IMG/VR virus record: IMGVR_UViG_3300036399_001267
Length of the DNA: 20,000 nucleotides
Reading direction: 5' to 3' (one strand)
From: an uncultured virus (IMG/VR IMGVR_UViG_3300036399_001267)
Lineage: Duplodnaviria > Heunggongvirae > Uroviricota > Caudoviricetes
Under the pieces are notes generated by a model. The model was not told the origin of the DNA and searched no databases. It saw only the letters and a list, made by a program, of their open reading frames with translations. Of this stretch, positions 4,993 to 20,000 are shown piece after piece. The stretch's first letter is position 1; every line of letters starts with the position of its first letter. Made by a program: the position numbers and the translations under genes.

Positions 4993-6010
4993 CATTTTAA
5001 GTGAGGTAATACAAGAAGGCGGCGCAGGTGGACATATGGCACATCCATTTGATTTTGTAAATACTGGCGCTAAATTGGTAGATGTATTTGCGAAAGCAGT
5101 AAAGTCTCTGAAGCAAGGCGCCGGTAGTGTAAAGATTGACGGTGTTAATGCAAGTATCCGTATGGTAAACGGTCAATTTGTAATGGATCGTGGATCAGCA
5201 AAACCACTTGATATCAAAGGAATGAGACCTGAAGATTTGGAGACAAGATTTGGAACCGGTCACGGATTTGTTAATATAGGTACTAAAGTTATCAATATTT
5301 TTGATGCTGCAATTCCATCCACAAGATCCGAATTGAAAACGCTTGGGTTACTAGATAATCCTAATATACTATTCAACATTGAATATGTAGAGGGACAAAC
5401 AAATGTGTTGGGATATGGTGAAATTGGAAACTTTTTAGCTATCCACGGATTAAAAGAAATTAAACCAAAAACATTTGGTAAAGACGGAAGTGTTAAATCA
5501 AGAGAAGCTGTTGAAATACCATATGATAAAACCGCAATGCAGTCTTATATAAACAAATTAAATAAGGTTGCTATGAAAAGTGGTTTTAAGGTATTGGGTA
5601 GCATTGACACTACTTTCAAATCAGAACCAAAACTAGCAAGCGTTTTGACGCAACAAGTTACATTGTATCCCACTGGCGAAGCTGTAACTAAGTCTTTGAA
5701 AGATTGGTTAAAAGGATTAAAGTTTAAAACTCCTCTTATTACCCGTGAACAATTTTTAAAAGCGGTAGATAGTAAGAATATCAGTCAAGATTTTCCAGGT
5801 CAAGATGTAAATAAAATAGTTAATGATACTATTGTTTATTTAACCACAATTAAATTGGGAGATGAAATATTAAAAAATGCTACCAGTGAAATTGGAGACT
5901 TGGAAAAACACGAAGGTATAGTTGTGAGAGACTCAAGTATTTATGGCAATCCATTTAAAATTACAGGAAGTTTTATTATAAAAGGTCTCGGCAGTAAGTT
6001 TAAGAAATAA
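4976..6010 (+). CDS. Putative ATP-dependent ligase-fold nucleotidyltransferase (RNA-ligase-like)
   Basis: Motif I SVKIDGVN (KxDG), motif III-like FNIEYV, motif IV HEGIVVR and motif V-like PFKITG. The N-terminus is MIRLNNILSEVIQEGGAGGHMAHPFD. Confidence 0.6.
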   Translation: MIRLNNILSEVIQEGGAGGHMAHPFDFVNTGAKLVDVFAKAVKSLKQGAGSVKIDGVNASIRMVNGQFVMDRGSAKPLDIKGMRPEDLETRFGTGHGFVNIGTKVINIFDAAIPSTRSELKTLGLLDNPNILFNIEYVEGQTNVLGYGEIGNFLAIHGLKEIKPKTFGKDGSVKSREAVEIPYDKTAMQSYINKLNKVAMKSGFKVLGSIDTTFKSEPKLASVLTQQVTLYPTGEAVTKSLKDWLKGLKFKTPLITREQFLKAVDSKNISQDFPGQDVNKIVNDTIVYLTTIKLGDEILKNATSEIGDLEKHEGIVVRDSSIYGNPFKITGSFIIKGLGSKFKK

Positions 6011-12670: not shown

Positions 12671-13114
12671 ATGAAATTAAAACATTTACTAGAAAATTCT
12701 ACTGAACACGCATATACTCCTCTTACCGTTTATGAGAAGAAGAATATGGTTGAAACGATCAAATCATATAACGAATATCGTAAAGGTTTGAAAACAGACA
12801 GTGTATATGAAACCGCACAAAAAATAATGGAAGCTGTTAATTTAGCAGAACGTTATGCTTTGAAAGAATGTGGCGATTGGATGGAAGCCAAGATGGTAGA
12901 ACGTGATATGAAAGAAATTAAACGTGATGCCGCAAAGATGTACGAAGAAGCTCAAAAGATGAAAGCTATTGAAAAACAACTTGAAATGTTGTACGAAGAA
13001 GTTGGTCGTCGTTTAGAGAGATATTTTGAAATTGCTGATCCAATCAATGAAGCTCCACAAGCTTATCAAACACAAAATCAACAAAGTTCAGTTAGTATCG
13101 ATTCATTGGAATAG
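12671..13114 (+). CDS. Hypothetical coiled-coil protein, probable prohead core protein
   Basis: 147 aa, helical, begins MKLKHLLE, immediately downstream of the protease. Confidence 0.75.
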   Translation: MKLKHLLENSTEHAYTPLTVYEKKNMVETIKSYNEYRKGLKTDSVYETAQKIMEAVNLAERYALKECGDWMEAKMVERDMKEIKRDAAKMYEEAQKMKAIEKQLEMLYEEVGRRLERYFEIADPINEAPQAYQTQNQQSSVSIDSLE

Positions 13115-13559
13115 AATCGATATATTCTAACATTTTATCAAACGTTTCGAATACATATTTTCTATTAGTTTCCAAAACATAGCCTTCGTCAGTTTTATAG
13201 ACGAAGGCTTTTATTTTTTCATTTTCCAATTGTAAAGCTGGAATTTCAATTTCAGAGAACATTTTATAGTCATCGTCGATTCTGAAATTCATCTCGCCTA
13301 ACATATCCAACTCTGAAAAGTTCCATCCATTTGGATGATCCAAATCTTCCAACTTATATATTTTAATATCTTCCTCAAAGTTATCGTTGTTTAAAAAATT
13401 AATCAACTTTGGACTTTTGTGGTTGTTGTAATTATTATTCATCGCACGAACGTCTGGATTAGAATATGGATTCTCATCGCCTTTTCTTTTGATATTTTTG
13501 TAATTATCCTTGGGTTGATTCATGTGTCTATTAAAATTTGGATTGAAATTGTATGGCAT
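13092..13559 (-). CDS. Hypothetical protein (155 aa)
   Basis: ATG-started ORF 4 nt downstream of the 197-aa minus-strand gene, with an Asn-rich N-terminus. No competing + strand ORF. Confidence 0.7.
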   Translation of the reverse strand: MPYNFNPNFNRHMNQPKDNYKNIKRKGDENPYSNPDVRAMNNNYNNHKSPKLINFLNNDNFEEDIKIYKLEDLDHPNGWNFSELDMLGEMNFRIDDDYKMFSEIEIPALQLENEKIKAFVYKTDEGYVLETNRKYVFETFDKMLEYIDSIPMNRY

Positions 13560-13563
13560 AATA

Positions 13564-14157
13564 TTACATTGATCCTAATGTTGTATTAATTCTGTCGATG
13601 AAATCAGATAACGTTTTACTTTTTTCTGCAAGATTTTCGTTATCAAAACTGTTGCTTAATAGATCTAATATTTCTTTATCGGGTTTATCGGGAAATGTTC
13701 TTTGAATAATACAAGCGTATTTGTTTTGTTTATCTTCGTTGTCTACCAACTTTTTAAACACATATTTTTTATTGGTACCATTACTATTGACTTCTGTAGA
13801 AACTTCGTTGGTACTTTTATTTTCTTTGAATTTTGTTTTTCCAAATCCACTAAATCCATTTTGTTTGGTTTGAAATACTTGTAATTCTTTTAGATCAAAT
13901 GGTACTCCAACTTGTTTAGATAAATGTTTTTTAAAACTTATACCGCTTACTTTTTTAATTTTACCCAAACTATATTCATTTTCTTTTAATTTGTGAATAA
14001 TTTCTTTTACTTTAGTAAAATCTTTTACACTACTTGGTTTTATAGTACGTGCCATTTTACGAACTTGCGGGGAAACTTCTTTTGATTTAATTCCGCCTTT
14101 TTGTAAAGCTCTTACTAGTCTAAAAAGTTTTGCTTGTTTTTGCGATTTTGCAGGCAT
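13564..14157 (-). CDS. Hypothetical basic protein (197 aa)
   Basis: Lys-rich N-terminus MPAKSQKQAKLFRLVRALQKG...VRKMARTIKPSSVKDF, preceded by the late-type motif on the - strand. Confidence 0.75.
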   Translation of the reverse strand: MPAKSQKQAKLFRLVRALQKGGIKSKEVSPQVRKMARTIKPSSVKDFTKVKEIIHKLKENEYSLGKIKKVSGISFKKHLSKQVGVPFDLKELQVFQTKQNGFSGFGKTKFKENKSTNEVSTEVNSNGTNKKYVFKKLVDNEDKQNKYACIIQRTFPDKPDKEILDLLSNSFDNENLAEKSKTLSDFIDRINTTLGSM

Positions 14158-15427: not shown

Positions 15428-17254
15428 ATGAGTATGGATGTAAAAAGTCTATTGACAAACAATATGAATCCACAAGCCAAATTGATGGCTGAAACACGTG
15501 GACTACAAAACAAGTGGGAAAAGACAGGCCTCCTAGAAGGTTGCCAAGGTGTTGAAAAAGCACACATGTCTATCCTCTTGGAAAACCAAGCAAAGCAATT
15601 GCTCGACGAAGCAACTACAACTGGTACTTCTACCAGTTCTGAACAATGGGCTGGCGTAGCTCTTCCATTGGTTCGTCGTGTATTCGCTGAAATCGCTGCG
15701 AAGGAATTCGTAAGCGTTCAACCAATGAACCTACCATCTGGTCTAATCTTCTATCTAGACTTCAAATATGGTACAACCGCTCCAAACCAAGACTTGCGTA
15801 ACTTGAACAACGGTAGTTCCAAGACTACCCGTGCAGGTAAGCAATTGAATGACAGTTTGTTCGGTGGTACAGGTAAGAAATTGGGTTCAACCGATAGCGC
15901 AGTACGTGGTCTATACGGTCAAGGTGCTTATGCATATTCTGTACGTCCAGTAAGTAGCTCTGCTATTACTTTGACAAAGACCGCTGGTTCAACAAACAAC
16001 GGTAACACAATTCAAACAGCTTCATGGAACGATGTTCAATTTGATGCTGATTTGAGCGCATCAGTTGTGGCTAAGAAGTTGTTCAAAGTTATTTTGAACC
16101 ACGACGACAATACCTCTGGTATTGCTGCAAACGGATATGTATACAACGCCGATTTGGTCGCAGTACGTTCATTCAACTTGATCTCTGGTTCAACTACTCC
16201 AACCACTCTACAAAGCAGTGGTTTGGTATTGAATACCTATAGCAAGGCAATTAACACTGGTAGTTTGGGCGATCCATTCTATCAATCTGTATACATTGTA
16301 TCTGCATCTAACAGTGCATTCGGCGGTGTATCTAGCAAGATTAAATTGATCTATAGTCTACAACCTACCGATAACTTACGTGGTGACTTCGAAGCTGGTA
16401 AGACCGCAGGTGAAGGTTCTGGTACCTCTGGTAACGTTGCTACACAAAGCATCGATACTGATATCAGTATCCCAGAAGTAAACTTGGTACTAAACAGTGA
16501 ACCAATCGTTGCTAAGACCCGTAAGTTGAAGGCAGTCTGGACCCCAGAATTGGCTCAAGACTTGAACGCATATCACTCCATTGATGCAGAAGCAGAACTT
16601 ACTGCTCTATTGAGTGAATATGTATCTATGGAAATCGACCTCGAAATCCTAGACATGTTGAACGAAGCCGTTCAAGGTCAAACAACCGAAGCTTGGTCCG
16701 CCCAAATCGGTGTTGAATTCAGCAAGAGCATCAACGCAACCACTGGTGAAGCAATCTTCACACGTAATGCAAACAGTTCACCAAACCGTACTGCTTACGT
16801 AAAGAGCACTTGGTTCCAAACTCTTGGAAACAAGATTCAAAAGGTATCTAACACAATCCAAAAATTGACCCTACGTGGTGGTGCTAACTTCTTGGTCGTA
16901 AGTCCAGACGTAGCAACCATCTTGGAATCAATTCCAGGATATGTAGTAAACACTGATGGTGATCAAGCTAAGTTCGCAATGGGCGTAAGCCGTGTTGGTA
17001 GCTTTGCTTCTCGCTTCCAAGTTTACAAGAACCCATATATGACCGATAACGTTGTATTGGTTGGTTTCCGTGGAAATAACTTCCTAGAAACCGGTGCTGT
17101 ATATGCTCCATATATCCCACTAATCCAAACTCCATTGGTCTATGATCCAGTGAACTTCACTCCACGTAGAGGTGTAATGACCCGCTACGCTAAGAAGGTC
17201 GTCAGACCAGAATTTTATGGAAAAGTTATTATCGGTGATCTCGATACCGTATAA
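15428..17254 (+). CDS. Major capsid protein (T4 gp23-like), 608 aa
   Basis: KWEKTGLLEG, LLENQ, LPLVRR, VSVQPMNLPSGLIFY, AKTRKLKAVWTPELAQDLNAYHSIDAEAEL, GAVYAPYIPL, DPVNFTPRRGVMTRY. Confidence 0.97.
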   Translation: MSMDVKSLLTNNMNPQAKLMAETRGLQNKWEKTGLLEGCQGVEKAHMSILLENQAKQLLDEATTTGTSTSSEQWAGVALPLVRRVFAEIAAKEFVSVQPMNLPSGLIFYLDFKYGTTAPNQDLRNLNNGSSKTTRAGKQLNDSLFGGTGKKLGSTDSAVRGLYGQGAYAYSVRPVSSSAITLTKTAGSTNNGNTIQTASWNDVQFDADLSASVVAKKLFKVILNHDDNTSGIAANGYVYNADLVAVRSFNLISGSTTPTTLQSSGLVLNTYSKAINTGSLGDPFYQSVYIVSASNSAFGGVSSKIKLIYSLQPTDNLRGDFEAGKTAGEGSGTSGNVATQSIDTDISIPEVNLVLNSEPIVAKTRKLKAVWTPELAQDLNAYHSIDAEAELTALLSEYVSMEIDLEILDMLNEAVQGQTTEAWSAQIGVEFSKSINATTGEAIFTRNANSSPNRTAYVKSTWFQTLGNKIQKVSNTIQKLTLRGGANFLVVSPDVATILESIPGYVVNTDGDQAKFAMGVSRVGSFASRFQVYKNPYMTDNVVLVGFRGNNFLETGAVYAPYIPLIQTPLVYDPVNFTPRRGVMTRYAKKVVRPEFYGKVIIGDLDTV

Positions 17255-17278: not shown

Positions 17279-17306
17279 AAAAACCCCAACGAAAGTTGGG
17301 GTTTTT
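17279..17306. terminator. Bidirectional rho-independent terminator between the MCP and the convergent block
   Basis: Perfect inverted repeat AAAAACCCCAAC-GAAA-GTTGGGGTTTTT with A/T tails on both sides, between convergent genes. Confidence 0.9.
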
Positions 17307-17312
17307 CTTGCA

Positions 17313-18086
17313 TTACTCAAAAAATTCGTTGGTAGATGTTACAACGATTTCTTGCACTTCTTCTTTGAACGAAGTATCTTTGGGGTAAGGTAGAACTTTA
17401 TGTTTTAGAGATTTAACCAGTTTCTTATTTTCTATCTTGTTGCTAATAAACTTGACGTAACGATGTTTACCACTTTCACGTTTACGCCAAAATGTTCTAC
17501 CTATACGTTCTTTTAATTTATCTACACTGTGTGTTTTCCATCTAGCATATACACTTCTACTATGTATCCATTCATATTGATTTGGACCAATTAAACTAAC
17601 ACTATAGTTAGGCATTATTGCTATATCCACATAGTTGTCTCCTTGATATACAAATCCAGTTGCTTGATATATTGTTCCAGCGTGTCCAACTTCACTATCT
17701 GCATAACTAAGAATACATTTAATGTGTGGATATTCTCTGTTTAATAGTCTAAAACTTTCAGCTATACAATAACTCTCTATATTTTTACCATAACCATCTG
17801 CAATCCATAACCGCGTTAATTCCAACACATTATTGTTAGTAAGTAGACAAGATACGCTGGTACTTGCATTTCTACCTACGGCATTTCCATATACTAATAC
17901 ACCTATCAGGCGTTCGTTAAATCCCCCAAAGAAAGTACTTTCGATATACTCTTTGTAATAAACTCCATAAGCTACAGTACAAAGTGACCACTTGTGAGTA
18001 TAGTGGTTCTTTTCAATAAGAATTTTTGCAACATTCTTATTGATGCTTTTGAGGTAAATTAATGAGGGGTTAAAATACTCCGACAT
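17313..18086 (-). CDS. Mom-family (GNAT-fold) DNA adenine modification protein
   Basis: NHYTH, LIGVLVYG, VLELTRLW, KNIESYCIAESFRLL and ILSYADSEVGHAGTIYQATGFVYQG match the motif order of phage Mu Mom homologues. Confidence 0.8.
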   Translation of the reverse strand: MSEYFNPSLIYLKSINKNVAKILIEKNHYTHKWSLCTVAYGVYYKEYIESTFFGGFNERLIGVLVYGNAVGRNASTSVSCLLTNNNVLELTRLWIADGYGKNIESYCIAESFRLLNREYPHIKCILSYADSEVGHAGTIYQATGFVYQGDNYVDIAIMPNYSVSLIGPNQYEWIHSRSVYARWKTHSVDKLKERIGRTFWRKRESGKHRYVKFISNKIENKKLVKSLKHKVLPYPKDTSFKEEVQEIVVTSTNEFFE

Positions 18087-18092
18087 TATTTC

Positions 18093-18120
18093 ATTATAAC
18101 AATATAACTCGACATGTCAA
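18093..18120 (-). promoter_or_regulatory. Consensus sigma70 promoter for the mom-like gene
   Basis: The minus strand reads TTGACA (18120-18115), a 16-nt spacer ending TGT (extended -10), TATAAT (18098-18093), then 6 nt to the ATG at 18086. Confidence 0.8.
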
Positions 18121-18132
18121 GATTTATATGAA

Positions 18133-18906
18133 TTAACACAATATATTTAATTCGTATCTCTCAACTAATGTGTTTATGTTTTGTTCTATTTTGGATATAT
18201 AATCTATCGTTCCATATTGATGTAGATTATAGTAGTGGTTATGTAACATTGGTTTAACTAATTTATTCCAGAATACCGGCGTTTTATGAATCATATCTTC
18301 AAACGAATTATACATTTTTATTTTATTAAATTTTTGATATTCATCAAATTCTTTGTATAGTTTGTCTAATTTATCAACATACAACTCATCACTCATTTGA
18401 CTTAACCAATCTGCCAATGCCACACATGCACCTAGTTGGTTTAATCCAACATTATAATTTGGTTTAAAATAATCGGTGGTTTTAATCAATTTACATATTT
18501 TGTTCTGTTCTTCTTGAGTTAGTATTTCTGAGAAGTTTTTGCTTACAAACTCACACCCTCTATCTACGTGACAATTTATATATTGGGCACCGGTTCCTAT
18601 TTTTTCATCTTTACTTTTTAAGAAACCAATGTCATGATATAACGTTGCGATCACACCACAGAAAAAATTATTTGGATCTTTTGTTATTATAGATTCTTTT
18701 ATAATACCATCATATATGTCTACAAATACCTCAACGCTTGATAAAAAATGATCTATATTATGATATTGTGTTTTTAATCTATAGTATTGATCATTTCCGT
18801 TTACACATAGTTCTATTAAAAACTCATAAAGAAACTTGATTCTAGGATCGGTATGTTTGAATAACCGGTTTGACGTTGTGGTAATGTAATCTAATGTGGT
18901 ATTCAT
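18133..18906 (-). CDS. HD-superfamily metal-dependent phosphohydrolase, candidate cyclic-nucleotide phosphodiesterase
   Basis: YHNIDH, LYHDIGFLK (HD), GTGAQY..CHVDRG and LADWLSQM...KL..LY.EF give a full H...HD...H...D metal-ligand set. Confidence 0.8.
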   Translation of the reverse strand: MNTTLDYITTTSNRLFKHTDPRIKFLYEFLIELCVNGNDQYYRLKTQYHNIDHFLSSVEVFVDIYDGIIKESIITKDPNNFFCGVIATLYHDIGFLKSKDEKIGTGAQYINCHVDRGCEFVSKNFSEILTQEEQNKICKLIKTTDYFKPNYNVGLNQLGACVALADWLSQMSDELYVDKLDKLYKEFDEYQKFNKIKMYNSFEDMIHKTPVFWNKLVKPMLHNHYYNLHQYGTIDYISKIEQNINTLVERYELNILC

Positions 18907-18907
18907 G

Positions 18908-19999
18908 TTAACTTTTTGATTTTAAGTTTAGGGGTTCATATACCTTCACAGGTATGTCCTTTCCTTTTACCTTGACCTCGACTACATAGTGATAGTCGAT
19001 ATCATCTTTACTTTTTTCATATACAGATTCAGACACTAAAATCTTTGTTTTATAAGTTTTATTAGCTGACTCCAAACGAGATGCTAAGTTAACAGTATCA
19101 CCAGTGACTGTGTAATTCATACGGTTGCTGGAACCAATATTTCCAACAATTACTTCGCCACAATTTATACCTATTCTGGTTTTAAATATGAATTTCTTTC
19201 CTTGAAATTCCCATCTTTTGTTTAATTTATCTATTTCATCACTTATCTTAAGAGCAGTTGCAACAGCTACACTCTCATGATTTTCTATTTTATTAGGAGC
19301 ATTCCAAAATGCCATTACAGCATCACCTATGAATTTGTCAACGGTGGCACCACTTTCTTCTAAACAATGTACATATACGTCAAAATATTCATTTAAAGAT
19401 GTAACAACTTCATCCACATCGTTGTTTTCGGAGATGGTTGTAAATCCTTCGATATCACTAAACAATACCGTTACGTATGTTTTTTCACCGCCTATTTTTG
19501 CATCTTTACCTTGAGTTATTAGTTGTTTAACAACCTTATCAGGAACATATTTTGCAAATGATCTCAAACCGGTTTTAACCTTATCAGTTGCATCAATCAT
19601 ATCATTTACTTCACTGATGTTGCTATTGAAGTCGATATGGTCATCTAAATTTAAATCTCTCAATTTAAGAATTTCATCTCTGACTCTGTAGAGAGGTTTT
19701 CTAATTGCGTTAGTCATCCAAATTATAATTGGACATATTAAAATTAACAATGTAAAAAATACACAAGTAAACTTCTTTTTATAATCAACGATATATTTGT
19801 CAGCGTCAACAGATTTAATATCACTACATACAACATAAATTAACTTTCCATTCTTAAATATAGGTTTATAAGCAGATAAAAATGTACCCCACTTATCTGT
19901 ATAATAATCATTTTCAAAGTATATTTCCTCTTTGGTATTTTTAAACAACTCTTTTAATCCATCACCAGCATCATCATATACTTCACCCAACTTAGCCTG
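18908..19999 (-). CDS. Membrane-bound class III adenylate cyclase (sensor domain-TM-HAMP-cyclase), 5' end outside the window
   Basis: Catalytic motifs VTVLFSDIEGFTTISE, DKFIGDAVMAFWNAP, RIGINCGEVIVGNIGS..RMNYTVTGDTVNLASRLE. TM segment FTCVFFTLLILICPIIIWM, HAMP-like RKPLYRV...SEVNDMIDATDKV, and a Cache-like segment YTDKWGTFLSAYKPI...VVCSDI. The frame is open to the window end (QAKLGEVY). Confidence 0.93.
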   Translation of the reverse strand, partial: QAKLGEVYDDAGDGLKELFKNTKEEIYFENDYYTDKWGTFLSAYKPIFKNGKLIYVVCSDIKSVDADKYIVDYKKKFTCVFFTLLILICPIIIWMTNAIRKPLYRVRDEILKLRDLNLDDHIDFNSNISEVNDMIDATDKVKTGLRSFAKYVPDKVVKQLITQGKDAKIGGEKTYVTVLFSDIEGFTTISENNDVDEVVTSLNEYFDVYVHCLEESGATVDKFIGDAVMAFWNAPNKIENHESVAVATALKISDEIDKLNKRWEFQGKKFIFKTRIGINCGEVIVGNIGSSNRMNYTVTGDTVNLASRLESANKTYKTKILVSESVYEKSKDDIDYHYVVEVKVKGKDIPVKVYEPLNLKSKS

Positions 20000-20000
20000 T

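Follow-up and report, generated by a model that had tools for sequence, protein, structure and literature searches.

Phage enzymes that act on nucleotide signals have mostly been described as erasers that counter host defence: Apyc1 degrades cyclic CMP (cCMP) and cyclic UMP (cUMP), according to PMC12484599, and phage phosphodiesterase families are listed as predicted counter-defences in jumbo phages in PMC7824862, where both mentions of the word "cyclase" concern other enzymes. Phage sensor cyclases have also been published, and the curli-cyclase clusters of HTVC008M and Melnitz are discussed in PMC9599517. In bacteria, the pairing of a cyclase with a phosphodiesterase is common logic. Here we analyse the last 20 kb of the 73,608-bp linear record G000 of an uncultured virus (IMG/VR IMGVR_UViG_3300036399_001267; completeness rating 27%). 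This whole stretch of 20,000 nucleotides is called the window, and its end is the contig end. It carries part of a gene for a membrane sensor cyclase and the gene for an HD protein, which the original prediction proposed as a candidate self-contained, two-gene module that writes and erases cyclic AMP (cAMP).

We narrowly favour the reading that the locus is a swappable, accessory unit of three genes for cAMP control, found in a T4-like clade of large phages from fresh water, which would tie infection to an outside cue. A small outer-membrane β-barrel would be made after infection, and an inner-membrane receptor cyclase would bind a small solute with its periplasmic single-Cache domain. Solute binding would act through a HAMP-like linker to adjust the conversion of ATP to cAMP; a cytoplasmic class-I-like phosphodiesterase would remove the signal, and host proteins that bind cyclic nucleoside monophosphates (cNMPs) would read it, tying host physiology or the tempo of infection to the cue. 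If true, a lytic phage could use a receptor-controlled writer, kept together with a candidate eraser, to sense its surroundings and adjust a second messenger of its host, and an uncharacterised bacterial HD family would gain a concrete predicted function, that of a class-I-like cNMP phosphodiesterase. The work was computational and covered gene anatomy, catalytic residues, the HD and Cache folds, linkage, selection, boundaries and a receptor search. The enzymatic predictions are good; the coupling, ligand, host and purpose we infer.

The upstream sequence that the original prediction had looked to comes from IMG/VR contig L001, which is 100% identical to G000 over 7,685 bp (capsid region to cyclase) and then extends upstream, completing the sensor and revealing the barrel gene (Table 1). 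A circularity check detected no terminal repeat on the G000 contig, so the missing upstream part does not lie at the contig start. The full cyclase (P0056) has 482 amino acids and consists of a transmembrane (TM) helix (residues 8-40 by hydropathy scan, outside the window), a single Cache domain, a second TM helix, a HAMP-like linker and a class III domain. Pfam Cache returned no match in P0056. Between residues 30 and 210, most blocks of the Cache-region model have a predicted local distance difference test score (pLDDT) of ~65-81, and in the fold search its best match is the formate chemoreceptor domain 8py0 (Z 12.4, root-mean-square deviation (rmsd) 3.4, 147 residues aligned), with CitA 2j80 at Z 11.1. 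The top matches are single and double Cache/PDC sensor domains with nearly tied scores, and thus no ligand can be named from the fold. The Cache segment and TM helix first proposed therefore stand, and the proposed HAMP domain is retained only as HAMP-like: Pfam detects none in P0056, gives E 0.16 in the relative P0334 and reaches E 1e-11 at the aligned site of the bacterial relative P0345. The model is unreliable at residues 232-313, and its cyclase half (mean pLDDT 58) was left unused.

Table 1 Features of the three-gene unit and its surroundings, in window coordinates unless contig L001 is named.
Feature	Coordinates	Strand	Remarks
Putative barrel gene, 215 aa	L001:2947-3594		Directly upstream of cyclase, 4-nt overlap; beyond contig end
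Cyclase, residues 1-119	L001:3591-3946		Beyond contig end, supplied by L001
Cyclase 3' part, residues 120-482 of 482 aa	18908..20000	-	Open at 5' end; Pfam Guanylate_cyc E 1e-27
C-terminal half of predicted extracytoplasmic single-Cache (PDC-fold) domain	19787..19999	-	AlphaFold model and fold search
Second TM helix, residues 193-219	19700..19780	-	Hydropathy scan
HAMP-like linker (degenerate)	19553..19714	-	Position aligned with HAMP of bacterial relative P0345
Class III catalytic domain	18958..19480	-	D301, D345 (metal), K341, T416 (base), N423, R427 (transition state)
Predicted HD hydrolase, 257 aa (P0002)	18133..18906	-	Resembles Npun_R2479 (PF28239); class I cNMP phosphodiesterase-like fold
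Downstream unit boundary	18129..18132	.	L001:5818 = window 18129, 4 nt past HD stop
Sigma-70-type consensus promoter site, 12/12 with TG	18093..18120 (L001:5827-5854)	-	Precedes Mom-like gene, outside unit
Mom-like DNA modification gene	17313..18086	-	Flank outside unit; siblings lacking the trio have it too
Major capsid protein gene (Gp23-like)	15428..17254	+	Phage context of unit
591-aa ankyrin-repeat protein with C-terminal class III cyclase domain	L001:1124-2899		Upstream of barrel; Pfam E 8e-5

The catalytic residues on which the original prediction relied are all present: D301 lies in FSD, K341 in DKF, D345 in GD, T416 in NYTVTG, and N423 and R427 in VNLASR. None of the six varies among 36 aligned relatives, which were taken from 120 listed homologues, all of them 69-97% identical. 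The best PDB sequence match is CyaB of Pseudomonas aeruginosa (3r5g, E 5e-31), which we take to be of class IIIb and with which the Lys, Thr, Asn and Arg align; in the guanylyl cyclase Cya2, Glu and Gly stand in place of K341 and T416. In PMC4215837, Lys is the adenylyl and Glu the guanylyl cyclase marker, and Asn-Arg is the transition-state pair. Judged by these residues, cAMP is very probably the product of the sensor cyclase. An RNA-library contig of 241 bases falls in the cyclase gene; it is a single contig and could be of DNA origin.

The HD gene begins 1 base after the cyclase stop, and the TAA-ATG spacing noted at the outset was confirmed on the open reading frames (ORFs). Its metal site, earlier read as YHNxxH...HD...H...D, is likewise borne out: in an alignment of 121 family members, every sequence has H49, H53, H91, D92 and D166, and 120 have H113; Q170, L183 and E186 do not vary either. 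The family profile search returned 578 representatives at E<=0.001, 150 of which were listed. The Npun_R2479 family PF28239 is precomputed on 50 of 53 HD homologues, and the top ESM Atlas clusters score 0.96. In the alignment the phage proteins group apart, with ~22-31% identity to the remaining family members. No paper on Npun_R2479 function was found in the open literature, subscription journals being outside its coverage.

The HD model (pLDDT 96) most resembles class I phosphodiesterases (PDEs). When 48,161 chains were ranked, class I PDE domains took all of the first 16 places (Z 15.6-17.7 over 217-235 residues), with a fit of up to Z 17.7 at rmsd 3.5 over 231 aligned residues; Foldseek TM scores are ~0.6. 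The next HD protein of another kind is the uncharacterised 2pq7 (Z 15.2, 172 residues). Other HD folds fall behind the PDEs: HD-GYP protein 4mcw at Z 9.5, alarmone hydrolases at no more than 10.7, and SAMHD1 also. Identity to class I PDEs is 9-18% and the phage domain is shorter. A PDB sequence search with the HD protein alone gave no matches, and the family profile reaches PDE5/PDE10 only across the YHN...HD part (E 6e-4). Within the family, Pfam PDEase_I matches 14 of the 121 aligned members at E<=0.01, and one GAF-fused relative lies above its gathering cut-off. Among 22 distant relatives, picked mostly for length, eight carry GAF domains and one is a HisKA-REC-cyclase-HD fusion. At residue 209 the 121 family members have Thr (116) or Ser (5), and F212 is Phe in 118 of them; by aligned ranges and PDE4D numbering, T209 and F212 presumably occupy the positions of the invariant purine-binding Gln and the hydrophobic-clamp Phe of class I PDEs. 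We predict that the protein probably hydrolyses a 3',5'-cNMP and, with somewhat less assurance, that cAMP is its working substrate. Two mostly viral ESM Atlas clusters (226-231 amino acids) have PDEase_I on 15-23% of their members, and other phages may thus encode candidate class-I-like PDEs.

The third gene enlarges the two-gene module of the original prediction. It encodes a protein with no Pfam match whose N-terminus is signal-peptide-like by eye and whose body is conserved and aromatic-rich. In the ESM Atlas it resembles clusters from viruses and Verrucomicrobiota as well as barrels of the TorF/Gcw_chp, Porin_4 and MipA types (0.96-0.97), and together with the N-terminus these matches suggest a barrel fold. 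Of its 14 viral loci, 13 have the cyclase gene immediately after it, and at the remaining one the contig ends. That the barrel feeds the sensor is a tentative candidate role.

The barrel, cyclase and HD genes make up a 2.9-kb unit that comes and goes as a whole: each of the five syntenic siblings compared lacks it entirely. Colinearity of the siblings with L001 runs to the stop of the ankyrin gene (L001:2897-2900) and resumes at L001:5818 in four of the five and at 5806 in one; where L001 has the trio, they hold ~200 bp, with a 70-amino-acid ORF in some. The order of the trio recurs in many phage contigs, and the HD gene lies directly downstream in 18 of 18 viral cyclase loci. Three HD types, ~50-59% alike, each occur behind cyclases that are 65-100% alike, and the identities of the two proteins conflict: L011 and L021 are 87% identical in the cyclase vs 52% in HD, and L021 and L213 are 73% vs 86%. 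It follows that HD alleles have probably been exchanged with adjacency retained. The ratio of nonsynonymous to synonymous substitution rates (dN/dS) is 0.05-0.16 for the cyclase (12 pairs), 0.05-0.15 for HD and 0.09-0.21 for the barrel gene; purifying selection acts on each of the three. The proposed pairing of a writer with an eraser gains from the CyaB-type residues, the PDE fold, the GAF and cyclase fusions, the co-conservation and the selection. The pairing is one-sided, as the HD gene also occurs without the cyclase.

Several results weigh against this reading of the trio. HD is found without the sensor cyclase at 3 of 24 viral HD loci (18 have it, 3 are uninformative) and at 19 of 51 metagenome HD loci (26 have it, 6 are uninformative), counts that include near-duplicates; 3 of the 19 are distant matches of 29-31%, and L216 is classed as uninformative, though a small membrane gene abuts its HD gene. 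Co-conservation is thus complete from the side of the cyclase and partial from that of HD, and the pair is not obligatory. In bacteria, a cyclase lies within ~6 kb in 2 of the 26 HD loci examined (of 27 matches), and several Verrucomicrobiota HD genes (L069-L093) sit beside coaE-, rho-, comM/YifB- and PilB-like genes; these neighbours were called by eye, and four genes were confirmed. As to the enzymes, Thr at the second base site occurs in adenylyl and also in some guanylyl cyclases, according to PMC4215837. The HD protein matches NF045583 at E 1e-14 but with 54 bits vs a curated cut-off of 400, Pfam PDEase_I has no match in P0002, and a Thr stands where our mapping by PDE4 numbering presumably puts the purine-binding Gln. 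What joins the barrel to the sensor is gene linkage. The profile search described below turned up no receptor, and no target gene emerged.

The asymmetric linkage, in which the cyclase is always with HD and HD also stands alone, points to a writer that depends on the eraser and an eraser that is of use by itself. It also bears on the alternative that survives best, although we consider it fairly unlikely: HD would be a stand-alone eraser of host cyclic nucleotides (cAMP, or Pycsar-type cCMP/cUMP), and barrel and cyclase would be separate cargo in the same slot. HD is under purifying selection also where the cyclase is missing (L016, L018), and in a quick tree the cyclase-less HD alleles are scattered over the branches (L017 and L211 have a cyclase cut by the contig end and are not cyclase-less). 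The Thr at the presumed purine-selecting site fits this alternative, as do the predicted counter-defence phosphodiesterases of PMC7824862 and the Apyc1 precedent of PMC12484599, and HD may have an anti-defence role. On the other side, the cyclase never occurs without HD (18/18), the three genes come and go as a block, and their adjacency has been kept across the three HD types. The folds also differ: HD has a class I PDE fold, and that of Apyc1 is a metallo-beta-lactamase fold.

A second cyclase stands upstream of the trio. Its ankyrin-repeat protein keeps both Asp residues, the Asn and the Arg, which are invariant in 8 of 8 aligned sequences, and has Leu at the Lys position. The protein is 73-100% identical across 77 viral loci (dN/dS 0.04-0.07) and commoner than the trio, with 88 matching stretches. 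The trio lies downstream in 7 of the 77 loci and HD alone in 1 more (some loci end early). Four long contigs of the clade that carry the ankyrin-cyclase, one of them rated 100% complete, contain no HD match and no second cyclase in a search whose positive control worked. From the 7 of 77 loci and the absence from these four contigs we take the trio to be accessory. A more elaborate form of the cAMP-unit reading, which we hold to be doubtful, makes the trio a ligand-gated, envelope-spanning cAMP circuit atop this soluble cyclase that would sense a solute outside the cell and set the timing of infection or lysis; a lipoprotein of spanin-like topology and a small membrane protein are encoded directly ahead of the unit. 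HD would then be the first characterised member of a class-I-like PDE family of prokaryotes and viruses (Npun_R2479) with a Thr-type base pocket.

It is less probable still that HD chiefly erases the product of the ankyrin-cyclase, which has non-canonical residues at the base-selecting positions. The ankyrin-cyclase is indeed present on each of the three viral contigs with HD and no sensor cyclase, adjoining HD in L016 and elsewhere in L018 and L019, and the invariant catalytic residues and low dN/dS would suit an active partner. The rarity of the trio, or of HD alone, beside this gene and the four long contigs without HD speak against such a partnership.

The unit is also accessory and mobile, as a defence system might be, and PADLOC models of PycC match the cyclase domain (best E 3.6e-36). 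A Pycsar-style defence against superinfecting phages, in which sensing at the envelope would lead to a cNMP and a toxic effector, is nevertheless highly improbable. The PycC matches extend across the shared class III fold only, the PycTM and PycTIR models of PADLOC have no match in the six cassette proteins, and no cNMP-binding domain was detected in five records. The base-selecting residues are CyaB-like, whereas PMC11224242 gives the pyrimidine sets Tyr/Asp/Arg, Phe/Arg/Gln and Phe/Lys/Phe for Pycsar cyclases; this contrast is a comparison with published residue sets rather than an alignment to PycC. The Pycsar-like role raised for the cyclase in the original prediction is therefore unlikely.

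The five records, which include the relative G001, were searched for cNMP_binding (PF00027), HTH_Crp_2 and GAF_2, and each profile matched none of the five; the controls matched, most records are fragments, and the search comprised these domain profiles, the 312 ORFs of G001 not having been scanned against the whole of Pfam. With no phage cNMP receptor found, even in G001, which is rated 100% complete, the module can no longer be called self-contained, and the reader is probably encoded by the host. For the cAMP-unit reading, a host cNMP-binding protein would thus be the more plausible readout.

Hints to the host are weak and point to Verrucomicrobiota. The only named bacterial HD matches are Opitutales, the Atlas neighbours of HD and barrel include Verrucomicrobiota, and 2 of 251 Verrucomicrobiota genomes have matches of 38-44% to the ankyrin-cyclase domain; this was the sole phylum searched, which biases the hint. 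The HD family is present in 23 of the 251 genomes. In the bacterial locus L090, a gene of the HD family is flanked by a CHASE2 cyclase on one side and, on the other, by a relative of the phage sensor cyclase (27%, full-length), and on the GC-rich metagenome contig L255 one lies beside a GAF-PAS cyclase. The neighbours of the Verrucomicrobiota genes make a link of Npun_R2479-like genes to type IV pili or competence possible. A bacterial source of the whole trio was sought and not found, the two Opitutales HD loci having no adjacent cyclase. The barrel had one weak match in the 251 genomes, with no cyclase by eye among the neighbouring ORFs. The PDEase_I search of the same genomes returned none of 251 and is uninformative since no control matched.

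The window encodes terminase, portal, Gp23-like capsid and Mom-like genes (Pfam), and these indicate a T4-like phage. Its relative G001 (295,831 bp) carries the trio, and the head proteins of the two are 50-69% identical. All 18 sequencing runs that hold at least half of the sequence words of the stretch are DNA, and their labels are mostly lake or freshwater; three of these runs may be the source of the record. That host DNA was misassembled onto the phage contig, as the original prediction had allowed, or that the genes are neutral, decaying cargo, is refuted: the cyclase gene is cut at the contig end and G+C content is 29-32% over 18001-20000 vs 41-43% in the capsid gene, but other phage genes of the window are equally AT-rich, the same order recurs in many phage contigs, dN/dS is low, L001 is identical, and lake-sample contigs from two runs not among the possible sources bridge the junctions with 0 differences (X7 over 17998-19327, Mom-HD-cyclase; X4 over 17827-18274, Mom-HD), which excludes a misassembly.

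Some features of the slot and its surroundings are recorded here. The 70-amino-acid ORF (L143:7773-7982), which has no Pfam family, fills the slot in contigs lacking the trio and is also found between ankyrin-cyclase and HD in L016, L217 and L221. In most relatives the variable slot is headed by two genes that lie upstream of the ankyrin gene in L001. One (L007:2650-3615) encodes a lipoprotein-like protein of 321 amino acids that has a coiled coil and ends in hydrophobic helices, a topology that by eye resembles that of spanins, and the other (L007:3661-4068) a membrane protein (126-135 amino acids in relatives) with a weak match to the MscS beta-domain (E 0.03). Among 67 ORFs of G000, 13 have the sequence ATATTTAT in the 70 bases ahead of them, a ~17-fold enrichment that makes it a candidate for a late-promoter motif. 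The lipoprotein gene (L007:2650) is preceded by it too, and the barrel gene (L001:2947) by an AT-rich variant. A promoter site similar to that before the Mom-like gene (Table 1) precedes this gene in the siblings L121 and L143, and a terminator-like 12-bp inverted repeat (window 17279-17306) lies between the convergent capsid and Mom-like genes. Two minus-strand genes within the head gene cluster (window 13092-14157; 155 and 197 amino acids) have no Pfam family and have counterparts at the same place in relatives. Elsewhere, G001 encodes a 505-amino-acid tyrosinase-domain protein (L036:16444-17958, E 2e-36) with an N-terminus that by eye resembles a twin-arginine translocation signal, and a phage gene in L016 (11166-11651) has a prepilin-like N-methylation motif (match below cut-off).

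In the open literature no paper was found on the trio or on a linked phosphodiesterase. The main texts of a preprint on huge-phage envelopes (10.64898/2026.10.24.761521) and of PMC12619734 contain no cyclase, cAMP or phosphodiesterase, and their supplements may list them. Among 50,697 GenBank phage records, the HD and barrel proteins had no match and the catalytic domain was matched in 9; with HTVC008M and Melnitz, this upholds the earlier statement that phage cyclases have precedent. The nearest phage system is the curli (type VIII secretion system)-FecR-cyclase module of pelagiphages and methylophages, as in HTVC008M and Melnitz, which likewise places a phage class III cyclase in a gene cluster that spans the envelope and includes an outer-membrane pore. 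The cyclases of these two phages are 36-37% identical to that of the trio in the catalytic part only, and their modules have CsgF/G/B and FecR (FecR is annotated in Melnitz) and no phosphodiesterase annotation within 6 kb.

Compared with Pycsar, the unit shares the class III cyclase fold, but it has no effector, has purine-type specificity residues and takes its input from a membrane sensor. The HD protein resembles class I PDEs (PDE4/5/7/10, RhoPDE and trypanosomal PDEs) in its whole-length fold, in its YHxxxH/HD/H/D metal site and in the GAF fusions of its relatives, and differs from them in lacking a direct PDEase_I match and in the Thr at the position presumably equivalent to the invariant Gln. 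Within the Npun_R2479 family it is placed by a match to NF045583 below the NCBIfam cut-off, and the phage group stands separate. The cyclase shares its Lys, Thr, Asn and Arg with P. aeruginosa CyaB (3r5g) and related membrane cyclases; unlike CyaB, it has a single Cache and a HAMP-like input, is encoded by a phage and is linked to a PDE-like gene. By analogy, the unit may work like a bacterial cAMP circuit of receptor cyclase and phosphodiesterase.

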